DNA from: Candidatus Poribacteria bacterium
Lineage (GTDB): Bacteria; Poribacteria; WGA-4E; WGA-3G
DNA length: 64,000 nucleotides
Reading direction: 5' to 3'
NCBI GenBank assembly: GCA_965205025.1
Contig: CBDBFU010000004.1
Location: forward strand, 32,001 to 96,000
Positions within the stretch are counted from its first letter, which is position 1. Each line of letters begins with the position of its first letter. Positions 6,987-50,542 of the stretch are shown one piece after another. The notes below the pieces were generated by a model. The model worked only from the letters and a program-made list of their open reading frames with translations, had not been told where the DNA came from and searched no databases. The translations under genes were made by a program, and so were the position numbers.

Positions 6987-8075
6987 ATGAATTTCAATAA
7001 ATGGATATCAATGTTGTCATGCCTGTGTGTTTTGGTATTTCTTTTGGGTTGTGGCGCTGAAGATGATACAGATGGAGACGACGAACCAAAGGCTGAAGCA
7101 TTCCAATCCAGTACAATGCTAAATGATTTCGCGAATACTGTCGTTTTAGCAACCTATACGGAATTGGATAAGAAAGCAGGAGAACTATTGGATGCAGTTA
7201 AGGTATTGGAAAGTGATACCACACAATCAAATCTTGTGAAAGCACAAGAGGCATGGAAAGCCACACGTACACCGTGGGAACAGAGCGAAGCATTCTTGTT
7301 CGGACCGGTTGATACACAAGGTCTCGACCCCGCATTGGATAGTTGGCCAGTTGACCACGTTAACCTACAATCTGTGTTAGATAGCAATGACAACCTAACA
7401 GTAGATTATGTCAATGGCTTAGAGGATACACAAAAAGGTTTTCATACAATTGAATTTTTATTATTCCGAGATGGAGATCAACGGAAAGCCTCAGATATAA
7501 CGGATCGTGAATTGGAATATCTTGTCTCAACAACAGAAAACCTTAAGGCAAGTACTTCACAACTACGATTAGCATGGGCACCAGAAGGTGAGAATTTCAG
7601 TAGTTCTGTTGCTCAAGCTGGAACAGGAAGTATTATTTACACATCTCAGAGCGCGGCTGTTCAGGAAATGGTTAACGGTATGATTACAATCGCCGATGAA
7701 GTCGCAAACGGGAAAATATCCGACCCCTATAATGAATCAAACACCACACTTGTGGAATCACAATTCAGTTTTAATTCTATCTCTGATTTTCAAGATAATA
7801 TTAGAGGTATTCAAAATGTCTATCTCGGTAAATATATGAATGATGGACAAGGATTAAATGAATTTGTAAATACCAAAAATGCAGAATTAGATTCACGGTT
7901 TCAATCTGAAATACAAAATGCGATTGACACCATTGGGGCAATCCCTGATCCTTTCCGGGATTCTATTACTAAGAGTCGAAGTTCTGTACAGGCAGCAATT
8001 GATGCCGTAAGTAAAGTTCAGTTAACTTTGGAACAAGATATTCTTCCACTTGTACAATCAAGTGAGTTCAATTAG
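6987..8075 (+). CDS. imelysin (peptidase M75 family, IrpA-like) iron-regulated lipoprotein
   Basis: AAGGAGG RBS; lipobox LLGC; WEQSEAFLFGPV, LDSWP and the imelysin motif GFHTIE. Confidence 0.9.
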   Translation: MNFNKWISMLSCLCVLVFLLGCGAEDDTDGDDEPKAEAFQSSTMLNDFANTVVLATYTELDKKAGELLDAVKVLESDTTQSNLVKAQEAWKATRTPWEQSEAFLFGPVDTQGLDPALDSWPVDHVNLQSVLDSNDNLTVDYVNGLEDTQKGFHTIEFLLFRDGDQRKASDITDRELEYLVSTTENLKASTSQLRLAWAPEGENFSSSVAQAGTGSIIYTSQSAAVQEMVNGMITIADEVANGKISDPYNESNTTLVESQFSFNSISDFQDNIRGIQNVYLGKYMNDGQGLNEFVNTKNAELDSRFQSEIQNAIDTIGAIPDPFRDSITKSRSSVQAAIDAVSKVQLTLEQDILPLVQSSEFN

Positions 8076-9630: not shown

Positions 9631-9888
9631 ATGGGAATGAATCTAACTATAATGACCATTAATTGCAGTATATTAATAATAATGTTTTTAATTGGACTTT
9701 GCTTTTGTGGTTGTGAAAGCGACCCAATACTATCTCCTCAAGTTGAAGTATCTGAGGAATCGGGTAGTTACGGAAATACAAACATTGAGATTAATGAATC
9801 TGAAACCAGTTCAAATAAAGTGAATAATCAACAGAAAAGAAGAATTCGTAGCAAGTTTAACAAGAATACAAACCCTAAACTCTTCTAA
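9631..9888 (+). CDS. small putative lipoprotein
   Basis: Hydrophobic N-terminus ending FCGC; fills the gap between operon genes. Confidence 0.55.
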   Translation: MGMNLTIMTINCSILIIMFLIGLCFCGCESDPILSPQVEVSEESGSYGNTNIEINESETSSNKVNNQQKRRIRSKFNKNTNPKLF

Positions 9889-9906
9889 GGTACAGGATTA
9901 TCTTTT

Positions 9907-12417
9907 ATGTATATTTTTACAGGTGTAGTTAACATATCAAAAACATGGAATAGATCCGTAATAATGATCTTGATGGTTACACTTCTCATGTGTATAGTCC
10001 ATAGTTCCGAGGGAACAAACATAATTAGTGGTAAGGTCGTAAATAAAGAAACAAAACTCCCAATTTATGGAGCGACTGTTAAAATTGATTCAAAAGGACA
10101 TACCATACAAGAAACTTCAACCGATAGAGAAGGCAACTTTCATTTTACGCAAGATTGGCATGAGGATCAACAACTTCATGTCAATTCAGAAGGTTTTAAT
10201 TTCTACAAGCAAGTACTATCATCTACTGGAGAGTTAGATGGTTTGGAAATAATGTTAACACAACAGCCTTTTGAGCTTGCACCCATCGAAATCATAGGTC
10301 AATCTTTACTGGAACATAAGAAATTACCGGGTACAATGACTAAGTTAGAACCAGAGACTGTTAATTTAATCAATCCTGTAGGAACCCAAGAATTACTTGA
10401 ACTAATACCTGGAATCAATGGATATGCAGATGATGGTTTCGGGAACTCACGATTGAGTATTGGCATACGTGGTTTAAACCCGCGAAGAAGTGCCCGTGTG
10501 CTTTTGCTTGAAGATGGTGTCCCAATTCAACCCGCCGTATATATCTATCCAAATGCTTATTACAACCCACCAGCAGACCGTATTGATGCAGTCGAAGTTA
10601 TTAAGGGTAGTGGAGCTATCCGCTATGGTCCACAGACTATGGGGGGTGTGATAAACTATACAACCCGAAAACCAACAGGAATACAAGGCTTAGCTAATCA
10701 AATTACTTTGGGAAACAATGGATATTATAGTGGATTCTCAGAAATCAGAGGAATTGGAAGTCCTGATATCGTTGTCTCAGATGTACAACTTCTATATAAA
10801 CATGGGGATGGATTTAGAGATAATAATACTTTTGATCAATTCAATGGTACAGTGAAGACATTATTCCAATTGACTGAAGAAAAAACACTATACATGAAAT
10901 TAAATGGGAATTATGAAAATTCAAATGCAACATATACAGGATTGACAGAGTATTCTTTTAGGACAAATCCGAATTTCAATCCAAAGAATGATGACAATTT
11001 TAAAGTCATACGTACTTCACTTGACCTAATTTATACCAACAAGATATCAGATAACATAGTTAGTAATTCGACCCTATATTCAAGTCTTTTTGATCGTAGA
11101 TGGTGGCGTGAGGATGATATTTTTGTTCGACCATCCTCATTTGACACAGGTAAATTAACACCAGTACCGTATTTCCAAAACGGAGACCTTATCAGAACTG
11201 GTAATGGAAAGAGTAATTTTGGTATTCTGCGTACATTCTATGTTGGTGGAGTGGAGCAAAATTACGCATGGAAACATGGAATTGGTAGCAATTCAGCAAA
11301 TGTAGACATTGGGGGCAGATTACATTGGGAAAGGTTTATTGACGATAGGAAAGTTGGTAATGCCCCTGATGCACGAGATGGAGTTTACTATACTGGTGTA
11401 CAGGATTCAACTAAAGACCCTGTGAAGATTGTTGGACAAAGTCATCATTACGAAACTACTGCATTGGCACTCTACGCAGAAGAACAGATTGAATTTCAAA
11501 ACTTGACTCTGATAACCGGTGTTCGGTATGAGCTATTTAAACAAGACCGTGTTGATAGATTACGCGGGTCAGTACTCGCTGATAAAGTATCTTCTGTATT
11601 ATTACCAGGTATTGGCGTAAATTATGAAGTAGGACATTTCAACTTTTTTGGGGGTATTCATAGAGGTTATACTGCACCTTCCAGCGGGGCATTAAAGATA
11701 ACTAATTTTGGACAGAATGTGGAATCTGGTGGACTTGACCTTGAACCTGAGAAAAGCTGGAATATGGAAGTTGGTGTTAGATCCTGGATACCGGGGATTA
11801 TCCTAGAGACATCCACCTTTTTGATTCAGATTGAAGATTTAGTCGCAGCGGGAAGAGGTACGGCATTTAAGAATTTAGGTAAGGTCAATCTATCTGGACT
11901 CGAATTTGCAATGAAATTAGGTATATCAGAATTATCTTCAATTCTTCCAGATTTCAACTTTACATATACATACCTTCAAACAGAAATTATTGATGGAATT
12001 ATAAAGTCTGCTACTATAGCAGGTAATGTTGATGTAGATATAAATGGTAATGAATTACCCTATGCTCCACAACACACCTTTACAATAGGTTTGTCAAAAT
12101 ATTTATGGGATTCTATCCGTATGCGTGCAGATATGCGGTTTGTTGATGAAGTATTTACTGATTTTGAGAATCTACAACAAACCTTTAACCGAGGAGACAC
12201 TGGACCTATTCCAAGTTATTCAATTGTTAATGCAAGTATAGATTACAAAGTTTCACAACAATGGCAGCTATTTTTTACTGTCAAAAACCTATTAGATCAA
12301 GTTTATATCGGGTCACGACTGCATTCAAATGCTGGTCAACCTGAAGCAAATCTAAGCTCAGGAATCTTAATTGGTCCGAGAAGACAGATATTATTTGGTA
12401 TAAAACAAGGTATATAA
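9907..12417 (+). CDS. TonB-dependent receptor (FecA-like) with N-terminal carboxypeptidase-regulatory-like domain
   Basis: ISGKVVNKETKLPIYGATV N-domain; plug motifs IGIRGLNPRRS, LLEDGVP, IKGSGAIRYGPQTMGGVINY; LEPEKS; VKNLLD. Confidence 0.93.
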   Translation: MYIFTGVVNISKTWNRSVIMILMVTLLMCIVHSSEGTNIISGKVVNKETKLPIYGATVKIDSKGHTIQETSTDREGNFHFTQDWHEDQQLHVNSEGFNFYKQVLSSTGELDGLEIMLTQQPFELAPIEIIGQSLLEHKKLPGTMTKLEPETVNLINPVGTQELLELIPGINGYADDGFGNSRLSIGIRGLNPRRSARVLLLEDGVPIQPAVYIYPNAYYNPPADRIDAVEVIKGSGAIRYGPQTMGGVINYTTRKPTGIQGLANQITLGNNGYYSGFSEIRGIGSPDIVVSDVQLLYKHGDGFRDNNTFDQFNGTVKTLFQLTEEKTLYMKLNGNYENSNATYTGLTEYSFRTNPNFNPKNDDNFKVIRTSLDLIYTNKISDNIVSNSTLYSSLFDRRWWREDDIFVRPSSFDTGKLTPVPYFQNGDLIRTGNGKSNFGILRTFYVGGVEQNYAWKHGIGSNSANVDIGGRLHWERFIDDRKVGNAPDARDGVYYTGVQDSTKDPVKIVGQSHHYETTALALYAEEQIEFQNLTLITGVRYELFKQDRVDRLRGSVLADKVSSVLLPGIGVNYEVGHFNFFGGIHRGYTAPSSGALKITNFGQNVESGGLDLEPEKSWNMEVGVRSWIPGIILETSTFLIQIEDLVAAGRGTAFKNLGKVNLSGLEFAMKLGISELSSILPDFNFTYTYLQTEIIDGIIKSATIAGNVDVDINGNELPYAPQHTFTIGLSKYLWDSIRMRADMRFVDEVFTDFENLQQTFNRGDTGPIPSYSIVNASIDYKVSQQWQLFFTVKNLLDQVYIGSRLHSNAGQPEANLSSGILIGPRRQILFGIKQGI

Positions 12418-46822: not shown

Positions 46823-46879
46823 CATATTAATAAATAATAAAAAAACAGCTTAATTCACGATATTAAGGAATTGGAATCC

Positions 46880-48023
46880 ATGTCAACACAAGCCTTCAAA
46901 ATAGTATCCGTCGAAAGCCTACTCTATGAATGGGACAGACCTCCTATCTGGAATGGGATGCACGTTTACGACAAAGGCAGACTACATTTGGTCAAGGTGA
47001 CTGCGAAAAGCGGCACAGAAGAAGTATACGGATACGGTTTTAATGGTGCTACTGCTGCAACAAGACCCCTTCACCTTTTTCCAATTTATTTAGACCTATT
47101 TCGTCCTGCTCTAATTGGTCACAACGCTACTGATACACCTTATATCACATGGTTAGCAGATAATTACAAGATTTATGGACCGGGTGGATATCACACACAG
47201 GTTTTAGCTGCTGTAAATCAAGCTTGTTGGGATATAAGAGGAAAACTTGAGGGTAAGTCAATCCATGAACTCTTAGGTGGTAAGAAGCAGCGTATTCGAA
47301 CATATATCGCTGGTGGATATTATAGTAGAGGAAAGGGATTAAAAGAACTACGGGAAGAGATGGAATATAATATCACTGAATTCAATACTACAGCAATTAA
47401 GATGAAAATTGGACATCAAGCTGCTGGTATTGAAACTGACTTACGTCGTATTGAGACAGTTCGTCAAGCTGTTGGTCCTGATATTAAGGTGATGGTTGAT
47501 GCTAATTGCTCTCTTTCTGTAGAGCGGGCAGAAGCCTATATTCCCGCTCTTCGAGCAAACAATATATTATGGCTTGAAGAGCCAATTCATAGTCACGATT
47601 ATAGGGGTTATAAGACAATACGTGAAATAGCGAAGGATTACGATATATATATTGCAACTGGAGAAAATGGCTACGGATTACACTACTTCCAAACACACAT
47701 AGACAACGAAGGGGCAGATGTTTTCAATTTGGATGTTGCTATCCTTCCTGGGTATGATACATCAATCAAGGTAGTTGAAGAAGCGTTAGCTGGCTGATAA
47801 ATGGATTTCCCCACATGGTGCACAAGAATTACAGATTCATATCGCTGCAAGTCGTGAGAATTGTTTGATGTTAGAATATTACCCGCCAGCGGTTGATCCG
47901 TTACGCGGGGAGATGTTCCTTCCACAAATGGAATTAGATAAGGACGGTCATGTAACTGTTCCGAGCACGCCTGGAATTGGATTTGAACCCAATTTTGAAC
48001 TACTTAAACACTATCGCATATAA
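46880..48023 (+). CDS. mandelate racemase/muconate-lactonizing enzyme family, +1 frameshift near 47792
   Basis: WDIRGK, KMKIG, MVDAN, WLEEP, ATGEN. Removing one G restores KWISPHGAQ...LEYY...PGIG...YRI*. Confidence 0.88.
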
Positions 48024-49304: not shown

Positions 49305-49343
49305 AAAAAGGGGTAGTTGTTTTCAAACAACTACCCCTTTTTT
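49305..49343. terminator. bidirectional intrinsic terminator
   Basis: AAAAAGGGGTAGTTGT...ACAACTACCCCTTTTTT between convergent genes. Confidence 0.85.
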
Positions 49344-49358
49344 ATTATTGCAATTTAA

Positions 49359-50429
49359 CTAAAAGGAATATAACGCCATCACAGAAACTAACATACCCAA
49401 TTTGAAGGCATCATTCTCTTGATATGTTCCATCTGACAGTCTAACATTATCATCATAGAGGGTTTCCTGTTGTATTGGAAGCATGACTGTTATTGACAAT
49501 GGCACATTATATGGTGTTGCAATCGATGCTCCAAAAGATGCCAGACTAAATCGCAGCCCAGTATTGATGTCAATTTCTCCTGCCCAATGTGCATAGGACT
49601 GATACAACCCAAGATAACTTGCCTGAAGAGTTACCCAATTATTGACTATGTAATTCAATCCTGCTGTATAAGTGATATCCCAAGAACCTCGATAGGTTTT
49701 ACTGTTTTCATAGAAAGGGTATTTGCCTCTTACATTGAGATTCGCACTCAACCCCCCATAAACAGGTAAAATGTATCGAATATCACCTATGGGATTAAAT
49801 GTACCTGTTCCAAATTGTATATGTAGATGCTTCAACCCTTTGTCACCAAGTATCCACGGATCTTCTTCAGTCTTACCCAACGGTAGCGTTGTTCCAAACT
49901 TAGCAAATAGTGTATCGTGCTGCATTAATATACCATGTGTGGTATACCCTAAAAGAAGATCCATATCTGAAATACCGCGGTAGGTTTCGTTCCGATGATG
50001 GATGTCTTGATTACGTAACATTGCCTCTTTCTGCAAGCTATCAGCCGGTTCTACCTCAACAATATTCGCATCCTGACTTTTTATTTCATAAGGGAGAGCA
50101 GCTTCCAAACGCCAATCATTATTGATGTGATATTTTAAGCCAAAATCGAATCGGACTACATTCAACTTCACTTCATGACGGTGCAATGGTACTAAAATCA
50201 CATCGCCAGAAGGAGACAAACCTTTTGCTTCGTGGTGTCCACCTTGGGCATAAAATCCTCGCGTCCCAAAAGATACCTGGAATTTACTATTTTCTGAAGT
50301 TAACCTAACTTCACTTACCCCACCCTGAGGGATAGTGGGGTTGCTTCACGCACCTCAGCTTTCTTGGGCAAAACCGAGTGGAAGGAAAATAAACTGTAGT
50401 GTTATAAATAACAAAAAAAGAAGTCTCAT
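49359..50429 (-). CDS. His-rich outer-membrane beta-barrel; putative selenoprotein with N-terminal UxxU (356 aa)
   Basis: AAGGA RBS; ATG at 50429; signal peptide; in-frame TGA at 50357-50355 and 50348-50346; frame then continues without indel into the track ORF; QFGTGT motif; C-terminal YSF. Confidence 0.8.
50317..50341 (-). promoter_or_regulatory. candidate bacterial SECIS hairpin
   Basis: ACCCCAC-TATCCCTCAGG-GTGGGGT stem-loop starting 4 nt after the second TGA. Confidence 0.45.
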
Positions 50430-50542
50430 TATTTTTCCTTTGGAATTATATTAGTATGTATTTAACATTTTAGTTGTATATTGACACACTTGTAATCACT
50501 CAAAGTTCCCAAATCAGCATTGAGAGCATTACAATGAATTGT

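Follow-up and report, generated by a model that had tools for sequence, protein, structure and literature searches.

UGA codons read as selenocysteine (Sec) have been predicted both in barrels of the bacterial outer membrane and in small soft-metal-binding proteins. The 119 prokaryotic selenoprotein families in Table 1 of a 2026 survey (PMC13188914) include the GSU2204-family MtrB/PioB barrel NF041027 and the FCYXU-type TonB-dependent receptor NF049945, which were predicted by comparative genomics and have one Sec each, as well as the HMA protein NF041115 with a UxxU motif. According to the same table, NF041115, NF045683 and a "putative mercuric transport protein" carry Sec for cysteine in a CxxC soft-metal site and belong to mercury or copper handling. 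Here, a 64,000-nucleotide stretch of DNA from a Candidatus Poribacteria bacterium (assembly GCA_965205025.1, contig CBDBFU010000004.1, positions 32,001 to 96,000; in the following the window) was analyzed, whose minus strand contains a gene for a predicted outer-membrane beta-barrel protein with two in-frame UGA codons (49359..50429; coordinates given without a contig or locus name are window positions). Comparative evidence points to a previously unannotated di-selenocysteine outer-membrane barrel, which founds the Sec branch of an uncurated family characterized by a C/UxxC/UxNP motif and six invariant histidines. A selenoprotein family would thus be added that annotation has missed, as the public gene calls that were seen are cut at the TGA codons or show tryptophan there. 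The predicted protein is unusual among selenoproteins in its location in the outer membrane, in having two Sec residues at a spacing of three codons (positions 4 and 7 of the mature chain as predicted), and in occurring throughout an order with two to three copies in each genome.

The barrel (query P0001) resembles NF041027 and NF049945 in the predicted use of UGA for Sec in an outer-membrane barrel, but both of these are listed with a single Sec, other folds and sizes and the motifs CXXCH and FCYXU, whereas the present protein has two Sec residues at its mature N-terminus and reads U-G-A-U-S, with no histidine following, where NF041027 has CXXCH. The UxxU spacing is the same as in NF041115; proteins of that type are described in PMC13188914 as small soluble HMA-fold or inner-membrane proteins, whereas the present motif is located on the tether of a barrel and P0001 has no HMA match. 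None of the models NF041027, NF049945 and NF041115 is matched by P0001 (NCBIfam 20.0), and the barrel family is not among the 119 families of Table 1. A first-pass annotation of this DNA, made from its letters alone, had recognized no described family, in agreement with the finding that no Pfam, NCBIfam or Table 1 entry covers it. No paper describing the barrel family was found in the literature that was searched; the supplementary lists of the metagenomic selenoproteome surveys cited in PMC13188914 could hold it. The first-pass annotation had further cited ExtI of Geobacter sulfurreducens as a porin-like selenoprotein. In the description of this cluster in PMC5877670, with which the comparison was made by description only, ExtI is indeed a porin-like outer-membrane protein with 12 predicted transmembrane segments that is experimentally linked to selenite and tellurite reduction, but it is not a selenoprotein, a designation that belongs to the cytochrome ExtKL of the same cluster.

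The third group of relevant systems comprises the mercury-resistance (mer) proteins MerP, MerT, MerTP and MerC/E/F. Cysteine forms of the present barrel are encoded in operons together with MerA, MerTP, MerT-like and GDCCVxC proteins and have a paired-cysteine motif as in MerP and MerT, whereas no outer-membrane barrel is among the mer components described in the consulted part of a 2021 survey (PMC8261052), in which the outer membrane is mentioned only in a figure legend. Haft and Gwadz (bioRxiv 10.1101/2022.07.06.499078) knew of no selenoprotein in mercury resistance, as stated in the consulted part of their preprint.

Gene structure and in-frame UGA codons

The open reading frame (ORF) listed under translation table 11 (49359-50219) starts with TTG, encodes 286 amino acids and, as the first-pass annotation had pointed out, lacks a signal peptide. 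The same frame continues upstream to an ATG (50427-50429) that is preceded at a distance of 6 nt by the Shine-Dalgarno-like sequence AAGGA (50436..50440), and it ends with a TAG codon (49359-49361), all of which can be read directly on the minus strand. This upstream continuation had been proposed earlier, together with the statement that two TGA codons are the sole interruptions, and the translation with TGA as Sec (U) agrees with both: it yields a complete coding sequence of 356 codons plus TAG, interrupted only at codon 25 (50355..50357) and codon 28 (50346..50348), to which homologues align from residue 1-5 to residue 356. The product reads MRLLFLLFITLQFIFLPLGFA|QESUGAUSNPTIPQGG...ALYSF. 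Its terminal phenylalanine and the histidine clusters GGHHE, LHRHE, IHHRNE and KHLHIQFGTGT are present as described before, and most of these histidines are invariant in homologues. Codons 1-21 (MRLLFLLFITLQFIFLPLGFA; 50367..50429) are predicted to encode a signal peptide with a putative signal-peptidase I site before Q22, as all 40 aligned homologues have a hydrophobic N-terminus of variable sequence followed by the invariant Q22.

Homologues were counted in six-frame searches that read through stop codons. The barrel gene was present in 37 of 41 related genomes, and 57 of 60 full-length homologues (37-99% identity, from four families of the order) contained exactly two in-frame TGA codons, with one TGA in the remaining three. 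Across the phylum, the gene was found in 140 of 176 genomes, including every genome of three families (111/111 in f1, 11/11 in f2 and 7/7 in f4), 10 of 29 in family f3 and none of the 17 genomes from seven other families; among the best 150 of the 291 phylum matches, 139 had two TGA codons, ten had one and one had three. Such a recurrence is far beyond chance. The positions of the TGA codons were identical in all 40 aligned genes, each of which encodes a signal peptide that varies in sequence and is succeeded by Q-[E/D/Q]-x-[U/C]-x-A-U-[S/T]-N-P, with U at both sites in 37 genes and C..U in three (CGAU, CSAU and CPAU). A non-random sample of 75 distinct poribacterial copies was composed of 52 UxxU and 23 CxxU forms and contained no other combination. 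The first UGA is thus replaced by a cysteine codon in some paralogues, and the second is TGA in all of these poribacterial genes (40/40 and 75/75) and a cysteine codon outside the phylum.

A profile search of 1.84 billion representatives yielded 479 relatives, among which were 13 full-length CxxC forms (CPACSNP, CAGCRNP, CSGCTNP, CAACGNP and similar), and cysteine at both sites was also encoded at the Bacteroidota loci detailed below. Only U or C was found at the two sites, save for tryptophan in the public entries P0163 and P0166, which print WGAW and C..W and were evidently translated with a code in which TGA is Trp, a misannotation. All public gene calls of the family are truncated at the N-terminus and cover 75-91% of the query. 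The earlier claim that the UGA codons specify Sec at Cys-equivalent positions is in line with these data, as both columns contain Sec (TGA) or Cys only; Trp, Arg or Gly codons were never found there in homologues, and close as well as distant relatives retain the TGA codons. This pattern corresponds to the classical comparative signature of a selenoprotein.

The genome also encodes the complete Sec machinery that the first-pass annotation had suggested searching for, with selA, selB, selC and selD all scoring over their curated cut-offs. A tRNA-Sec gene was identified with 78.5 bits (cut-off 47) and classified by ARAGORN as SeC with anticodon tca, and it is adjoined by selB (366 bits). The selA match scored 599 bits and the selD match 364 bits, the latter containing one in-frame TGA. 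This Sec form of selD (G000:C4:104148-105074, minus strand) is located on the same contig as the barrel gene, approximately 8 kb past the right end of the window. As 163 of the 176 phylum genomes have selA over the cut-off, the gene is near-universal, and co-occurrence of the barrel with the Sec trait therefore offers no contrast for a test.

Two explanations would dispense with Sec. In the first, the gene is decaying, the TGA codons are nonsense mutations and only the 286-residue product of the TTG-initiated ORF, or nothing at all, is made. Gene callers do annotate just this truncated ORF, and the window contains other genes that the first-pass annotation described as broken. Nevertheless, both TGA codons are retained across the four families and the phylum in the numbers given above, the 70 upstream codons including the signal peptide are conserved, and the truncated product would be devoid of an export signal, which makes decay very improbable. 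In the second, TGA is reassigned to Trp or Gly (code 4 or 25) and the motif would be WGAW or GGAG. The tryptophans of P0163 and P0166 are what a caller using TGA=Trp would print, but homologues have Cys and never Trp or Gly at both columns, the genome has a complete Sec system, long ORFs are intact under table 11, and TGA also serves as an ordinary stop codon, both in the window, where 6 of 36 long ORFs end with it, and in the barrel genes (6 of 40). This use as a stop in the very same genes refutes reassignment, the probability of which is considered negligible. Conservation of the TGA codons, the pairing of U with C, the use of TGA as a stop and the full Sec system together rule out that the gene is a pseudogene, that the TGA codons are sequencing errors or that the code is reassigned, and the barrel gene is regarded with high confidence as a true selenoprotein gene. 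The confirmation of both TGA codons in reads, which had also been suggested, was obtained in part: contigs of two public sequencing runs span the whole stretch with no differences, but these runs may be the source sample and are not counted as independent support.

Predicted fold and invariant residues

The AlphaFold2 model (40-row alignment A2) reached a mean predicted local distance difference test score (pLDDT) of 77.7 and a predicted template modeling score (pTM) of 0.75, with approximately 12 strands assigned by DSSP. The barrel body is predicted to comprise residues ~50-356 (49359..50282, minus strand) and ends with ...YSF; an aromatic residue at the C-terminus is a known signal of outer-membrane proteins. 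The top Foldseek match in the PDB was FapF (5o67_B, E 1.6e-13, TMt 0.68), followed by the COG4313 channel 4rl8_C (E 6.5e-11, TMt 0.75) and then by FadL and TodX. The protein is very likely an outer-membrane barrel, and the exported barrel envisaged in the first-pass annotation is thereby corroborated at the level of the predicted structure.

The family shares with the COG4313/PF13557 channels (4rl8) and with FapF (5o65/5o67) a barrel of about 12 strands, a similar size and an N-terminal segment ahead of strand 1. The structural alignments show 10-12% identity, and membership of P0001 is not visible at the sequence level, as PF13557 was not matched at E<=1 and a profile search of PDB sequences gave no match at E<=1. 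Neither FapF nor the COG4313 channels are known to have the N-terminal hook or the six invariant histidines of the present family. No selenoprotein members of these channel families are described in the sources consulted. The Pfam scan of P0001 retrieved only sub-threshold matches to OMP_b-brl (E 0.012) and DUF2490 (E 0.079), NCBIfam 20.0 gave nothing meaningful, and PF13557 was matched by none of the eight Cys forms that were scanned.

An alignment of 22 sequences that includes distant Cys forms revealed the invariant residues H65, H85, P113, H144, H145, R146, E148, G152, D155, G179, P183, G185, H201, H203, G207, G209, P213 and W282, and the hook C/U-x-x-C/U-x-N-P was present in every aligned sequence that reaches the N-terminus. 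Judged from this conservation, the family is defined by the hook, six invariant histidines (H65, H85, H144, H145, H201 and H203) and the residues R146, E148, D155 and W282. Known barrels with an even number of strands have both termini in the periplasm. If this holds for the modeled protein, the order of its strands would place H65 and H85 toward the outward-facing ends of strands 1 and 2, and H144/H145 and H201/H203 in two long surface loops (126-147 and 183-213), with the hook either in the lumen or on the side of the periplasm, approximately 22 residues ahead of strand 1. From these strand and loop positions, the term "His-lined" for the barrel, which goes back to the first-pass annotation, is plausible.

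The structural matches raise the alternative of an ordinary COG4313/FadL-type channel for small hydrophobic compounds, in which a diselenide between the two Sec residues would serve as a structural staple of the plug and metals would play no role. FapF is followed in the structural ranking by the COG4313 channel, FadL and TodX, and the nearest clusters in the ESM Atlas carry PF13557 on 51-75% of their members; one database relative has a precomputed PF13557 match and another bears the name fatty-acid transport protein in its source. This alternative has to contend with the lack of a PF13557 match in P0001 at E<=1 and with six invariant histidines, an invariant CxxCxNP hook, fusions to HMA and thioredoxin domains and a mer context, none of which would be expected of a hydrocarbon channel. 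Employing the costly Sec for a purely structural bond would also be unusual, and a hydrophobic channel is judged to be quite improbable.

Cysteine forms in mer-type operons and domain fusions

Cys forms of the barrel were analyzed at 20 Bacteroidota loci from Saprospiraceae, Flavobacteriales, Cyclobacteriaceae, Chitinophagaceae and others. The barrel gene is abutted or overlapped in 17 of them (gap -43 to +29 nt) by a gene for a 217-residue protein that consists of a signal peptide, an HMA domain (GMTCxxC) and a thioredoxin domain (WCxPC). Genes for MerA, MerTP or a MerT-like protein are found within 3 kb at 14 of the 20 loci, a GDCCVxC protein at four and an ArsR-type regulator at four. Exemplars scored over the respective cut-offs for MerA (TIGR02053, 514 bits, cut-off 454), MerTP (NF033556, 218 bits, cut-off 180) and GDCCVxC (NF041374, 107 bits, cut-off 40), and the MerT-like exemplar remained below the cut-offs. 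These loci (L079-L098; for example L082 57-4029 and L083 876-1085) are located on contigs of metagenome-assembled genomes and resemble compact mer-type operons that contain MerTP or a MerT-like protein, MerA with an N-terminal HMA domain, a small thioredoxin-like protein, the GDCCVxC protein (NF041374), the ArsR-type regulator, the HMA-thioredoxin protein and the barrel with a CPAC hook. The genes for the latter two proteins look translationally coupled.

The same two domains also occur fused to the barrel itself. The homologue P0135 has a C-terminal HMA domain (PF00403, E 5e-11) and the homologues P0218 and P0222 have a C-terminal WCxPC thioredoxin domain (PF00085, E ~1e-9), with which P0224 and P0230 align; the linker ahead of the thioredoxin domain is rich in His and Asp in P0222, P0224 and P0230 and short in P0218. 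As adjacency and fusion involve the same domains, a functional link of the barrel to periplasmic soft-metal carriers is the best-supported interpretation. A complex prediction for a Bacteroidota barrel (A6, residues 23-349) with its HMA-thioredoxin neighbor (A7, residues 20-217) returned a score of 0.00, which speaks neither for nor against binding.

The metal handled in Bacteroidota is judged from this context to be Hg(II). The connection between the Cys forms and mer operons suggests that the barrel is an outer-membrane component of mercury handling, one that is absent from the components covered in the consulted part of PMC8261052. The mercury link also bears on the statement of Haft and Gwadz quoted above, and a mercury role in Bacteroidota could be tested in cultivable members. 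In a quick IQ-TREE phylogeny, midpoint-rooted for drawing only, all CxxC forms are on one side of a branch with SH-aLRT support of 98 and CxxU forms arise at least three times; no direction of exchange between Cys and Sec is claimed.

These partners can also be read as those of a redox protein, in which the UxxU/CxxC hook would be a redox-active diselenide or disulfide recycled by a periplasmic thioredoxin-like partner. The hook would reduce or oxidize a substrate on its passage through the barrel, for instance a peroxide, a polysulfide or a species of selenium or tellurium, and the histidines would hold a catalytic metal. Eukaryotic SelL provides a known case of a UxxU diselenide, and the CxxC spacing of the hook, the thioredoxin domains of P0218 and P0222 and of the aligned P0224 and P0230, the thioredoxin half of the neighbor at 17 of 20 Bacteroidota loci and the many invariant residues, which would suit an enzyme, are all compatible with this idea. 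The same partners, nevertheless, carry HMA domains, the loci contain MerA and MerTP, the hook is part of an unstructured tether and not of a thioredoxin fold, and thioredoxin could merely keep the hook reduced for metal binding. The redox reading, which is mutually compatible with a role in metal handling, is considered unlikely as the primary explanation. Handling of soft metals by the barrel protein is held to have a slightly better than even chance. The redox or soft-metal site foreseen by the first-pass annotation finds support in the Cys forms of the mer operons that follow the HMA-thioredoxin gene and in the HMA and thioredoxin fusions.

Candidate recoding hairpins downstream of the UGA pair

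Two hairpins can form 3' of the second UGA in nearly all of the barrel genes. Hairpin 1 (50318..50340, minus strand) has the stem CCCCAC/GUGGGG with an 11-nt loop and starts 14 nt past the first and 5 nt past the second UGA. Hairpin 2 (50295..50313, minus strand) starts 32 nt past the second UGA and has an 8-bp stem, UGAAGUUA/UAACUUCA, with a 3-nt apical loop that reads GGU in the window and GUU in most homologues. RNAalifold (alignment A1) found hairpin 2 and not hairpin 1, whose register shifts among lineages; hairpin 1 was specified by hand for the pairing statistics, which favors it somewhat.

Pairing of both hairpins in the alignment of 40 sequences extended to 88.9% of cells in comparison to 81.2% in shuffled alignments (0/500 as high), and 55 cells were changed on both sides as compared to 19.6 in the shuffles (0/500 as high). 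Slid registers gave pairing of 30-54%. In hairpin 2, helix 3 was paired to 91.6%. Compensatory combinations were observed at pair 24-49 (CG 17, UA 13, UG 5) and pair 28-42 (AU 17, GC 9, GU 2) of hairpin 1 and at pair 60-66 of hairpin 2 (UA 20, CG 17, GU 3). The latter switches at the third positions of codons for Val and, for the most part, Leu, a pattern for which the peptide alone does not account. Shuffling of synonymous codons resulted in a mean z of -1.25, with negative values for 35 of 40 genes and values below -1.64 for 12 of 40, a modest signal, as the conserved peptide already forces much of the structure. All of these figures overstate independence, as the sequences are related.

Hairpin 1, or an alternative register on the second CCCAC, is the likeliest candidate for the selenocysteine insertion sequence (SECIS). 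For comparison, the genes of three HMA selenoproteins encoded in this genome each have a GUGCA-GGA-UGCAC hairpin at a distance of 17-20 nt downstream of the UGA codon. If the assignment is true, the tandem UGA pair, 9 nt apart, and its two-hairpin element would be a natural test case for the decoding of adjacent Sec codons by SelB.

Envelope selenoproteins and barrel paralogues in Poribacteria

Poribacteria are mostly sponge symbionts. Three exported HMA proteins encoded by the genome of the window have Sec in their metal sites, which read GMTUGSC, GMTUGNC and GMTUGAC, so that Sec in place of Cys in metal sites of the cell envelope appears to be a habit of this organism. Two of these, with GMTUGSC (L169 925-1305, plus strand) and GMTUGNC (L169 1414-1776, plus strand), are lipoprotein-like and encoded in tandem on contig C23 of the genome (G000). 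The third is a 532-residue selenoprotein (L171 1489-3087, minus strand; contig C15 of G000) that carries GMTUGAC in an HMA domain at its C-terminus and, in addition, a CQGCH motif. All three genes look unannotated. Together with the barrel, the HMA selenoproteins point to a selenium-based metal chemistry at the poribacterial cell envelope.

Two or three barrel copies are present per genome. In one genome of family f3 (L073 on the G084 chromosome) two copies at 7107-8024 and 9837-10595 are arranged on the same strand approximately 1.8 kb apart, the first being a match with one TGA and the second having a UGAU hook just upstream. A third copy in another genome (G021:C1:1198170-1198780) was recovered in two overlapping pieces that cover only residues 3-110 and 263-356 and is probably a decayed paralogue. 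Weak matches (E ~1e-4, 26-29% identity, residues 170-277) were obtained at G004:C73:58289-58597, G022:C1:1565973-1566272 and G012:C130:179020-179334; these belong to open frames of 339-343 amino acids with no TGA and may be distant barrel paralogues that have no hook.

Proposed function

Taken as a whole, it is considered probable that the gene encodes an intact di-Sec outer-membrane barrel that is translated with the aid of the two hairpins and that moves or captures a thiophilic metal by means of its histidines and its hook. SelB and tRNA-Sec would read both UGA codons as Sec, helped by the conserved two-hairpin element downstream. Export and cleavage of the signal peptide would then leave a mature chain that starts with Q-E-S-Sec-G-A-Sec-S-N-P and continues through a flexible tether of approximately 28 residues into an outer-membrane barrel of the FapF/COG4313 type with about 12 strands. 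At the outer membrane, the barrel may move or capture an ion of a thiophilic metal. This ion would bind first to the histidines of strands 1-2 and of the two long loops that face the cell surface; the diselenol (or dithiol) hook of the periplasmic tether would then receive it and hand it on to metal carriers in the periplasm. The Cys form of Bacteroidota would fulfil the same role in mercury-resistance operons together with the HMA-thioredoxin protein, and in the poribacterium Sec would replace the Cys residues of the hook. In this scheme the reading frame, its conservation, the pairing of Sec with Cys, the Sec machinery, the hairpins, the fold, the invariant residues, the domain fusions and the gene context of the Cys forms are computational results, and the cleavage site, the topology, the binding of metal and the direction and identity of the transported species are inferred.

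Several observations weigh against this proposal. With regard to the RNA element, the folding energy is partly due to the conserved peptide, as the shuffled means are already approximately -15 kcal/mol. The geometry is non-classical: the published bacterial SECIS model has a window of 16-37 nt, and the loop of hairpin 1 lies 20 nt after the first and 11 nt after the second UGA, that of hairpin 2 49 nt and 40 nt, respectively. Both hairpins persist in CxxU genes, and an assignment of one hairpin per UGA is therefore not supported. No Rfam match was obtained in 50150-50500 at E<=10 beyond chance-level matches to SNORD124 and engA. The RNA control with Cys forms (19 of 21 loci, as L088 has X in the motif and L099 gave no match) yielded a mean z of -0.68 with 15 of 19 values negative and no visible element like hairpin 2; it is not like for like, as the peptide after the motif also differs, and no conclusion was drawn from it. 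As to the protein, the N-terminal hook is modeled with low confidence (pLDDT <50 for residues 16-29 and 36-45), and only the order of the strands indicates how the histidines cluster and how far the hook reaches.

The poribacterial genomic context likewise counts against it. The neighbors of the gene (Laminin_G_3, DUF6807 and an ABC transporter) are not informative, and a comparison of 17 poribacterial loci of 15 kb identified no neighbor conserved across families; within one paralogue class only, an aldo/keto reductase, a lipid A acyltransferase and a 144-residue protein with no Pfam match recur. The genome contains no MerA over the cut-off (best match 383.9 bits, cut-off 454), no MerTP over the cut-off and no HMA-thioredoxin fusion, so that the mercury link rests on approximately 40%-identical Cys relatives in another phylum. 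Homologues of the HMA selenoproteins with one TGA were detected in every one of the 29 genomes that represent family f3, only 10 of which have the barrel; as the HMA selenoproteins occur in this family regardless of the barrel, a specific partnership between the two is not supported.

A more far-reaching version of the metal-handling proposal is put forward tentatively, with a chance well short of even. The family would constitute the missing outer-membrane step of thiophilic-metal traffic, in which a His-lined barrel captures Hg(II), Cu(I) or Cd(II) at the cell surface and a dithiol hook on its tether draws the captured ion inward to HMA carriers of the periplasm, which in Bacteroidota would amount to a new mer component. 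Poribacteria would have turned the hook into a diselenol and retained two to three copies per genome with no MerA, and might exploit the much tighter selenium-metal bond for scavenging a trace metal or for trapping toxic metal in the envelope.

Sequencing depth and flanking features

The summed contig depth rises from ~30 to ~480 (run X1) over the hook and signal-peptide region (50325-50406), a rise seen in runs X1 and X2, and several other short contigs with 2-9 differences match the same segment in these two runs. The DNA around the UGA pair is thus common to paralogues or other strains in the sample. No RNA run is listed among the sequencing runs that contain the stretch; a 329-nt contig of a relative that covers 50122-50450 in run X19, which was guessed to be RNA, was not used as evidence of expression.

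According to the ORF map, the barrel gene is solitary, being flanked by convergent and divergent neighbors. A hairpin of 17 pairs that resembles a bidirectional intrinsic terminator is located 16 nt beyond its stop codon (49305..49342). Further away, an enolase-superfamily ORF (46871-47797, plus strand) has an MR_MLE_C match that reaches only position 142 of 219 and is followed in another frame by an ORF of 52 amino acids (47865-48023, plus strand). This gene looks frameshifted or split, which is consistent with the broken genes mentioned in the first-pass annotation.

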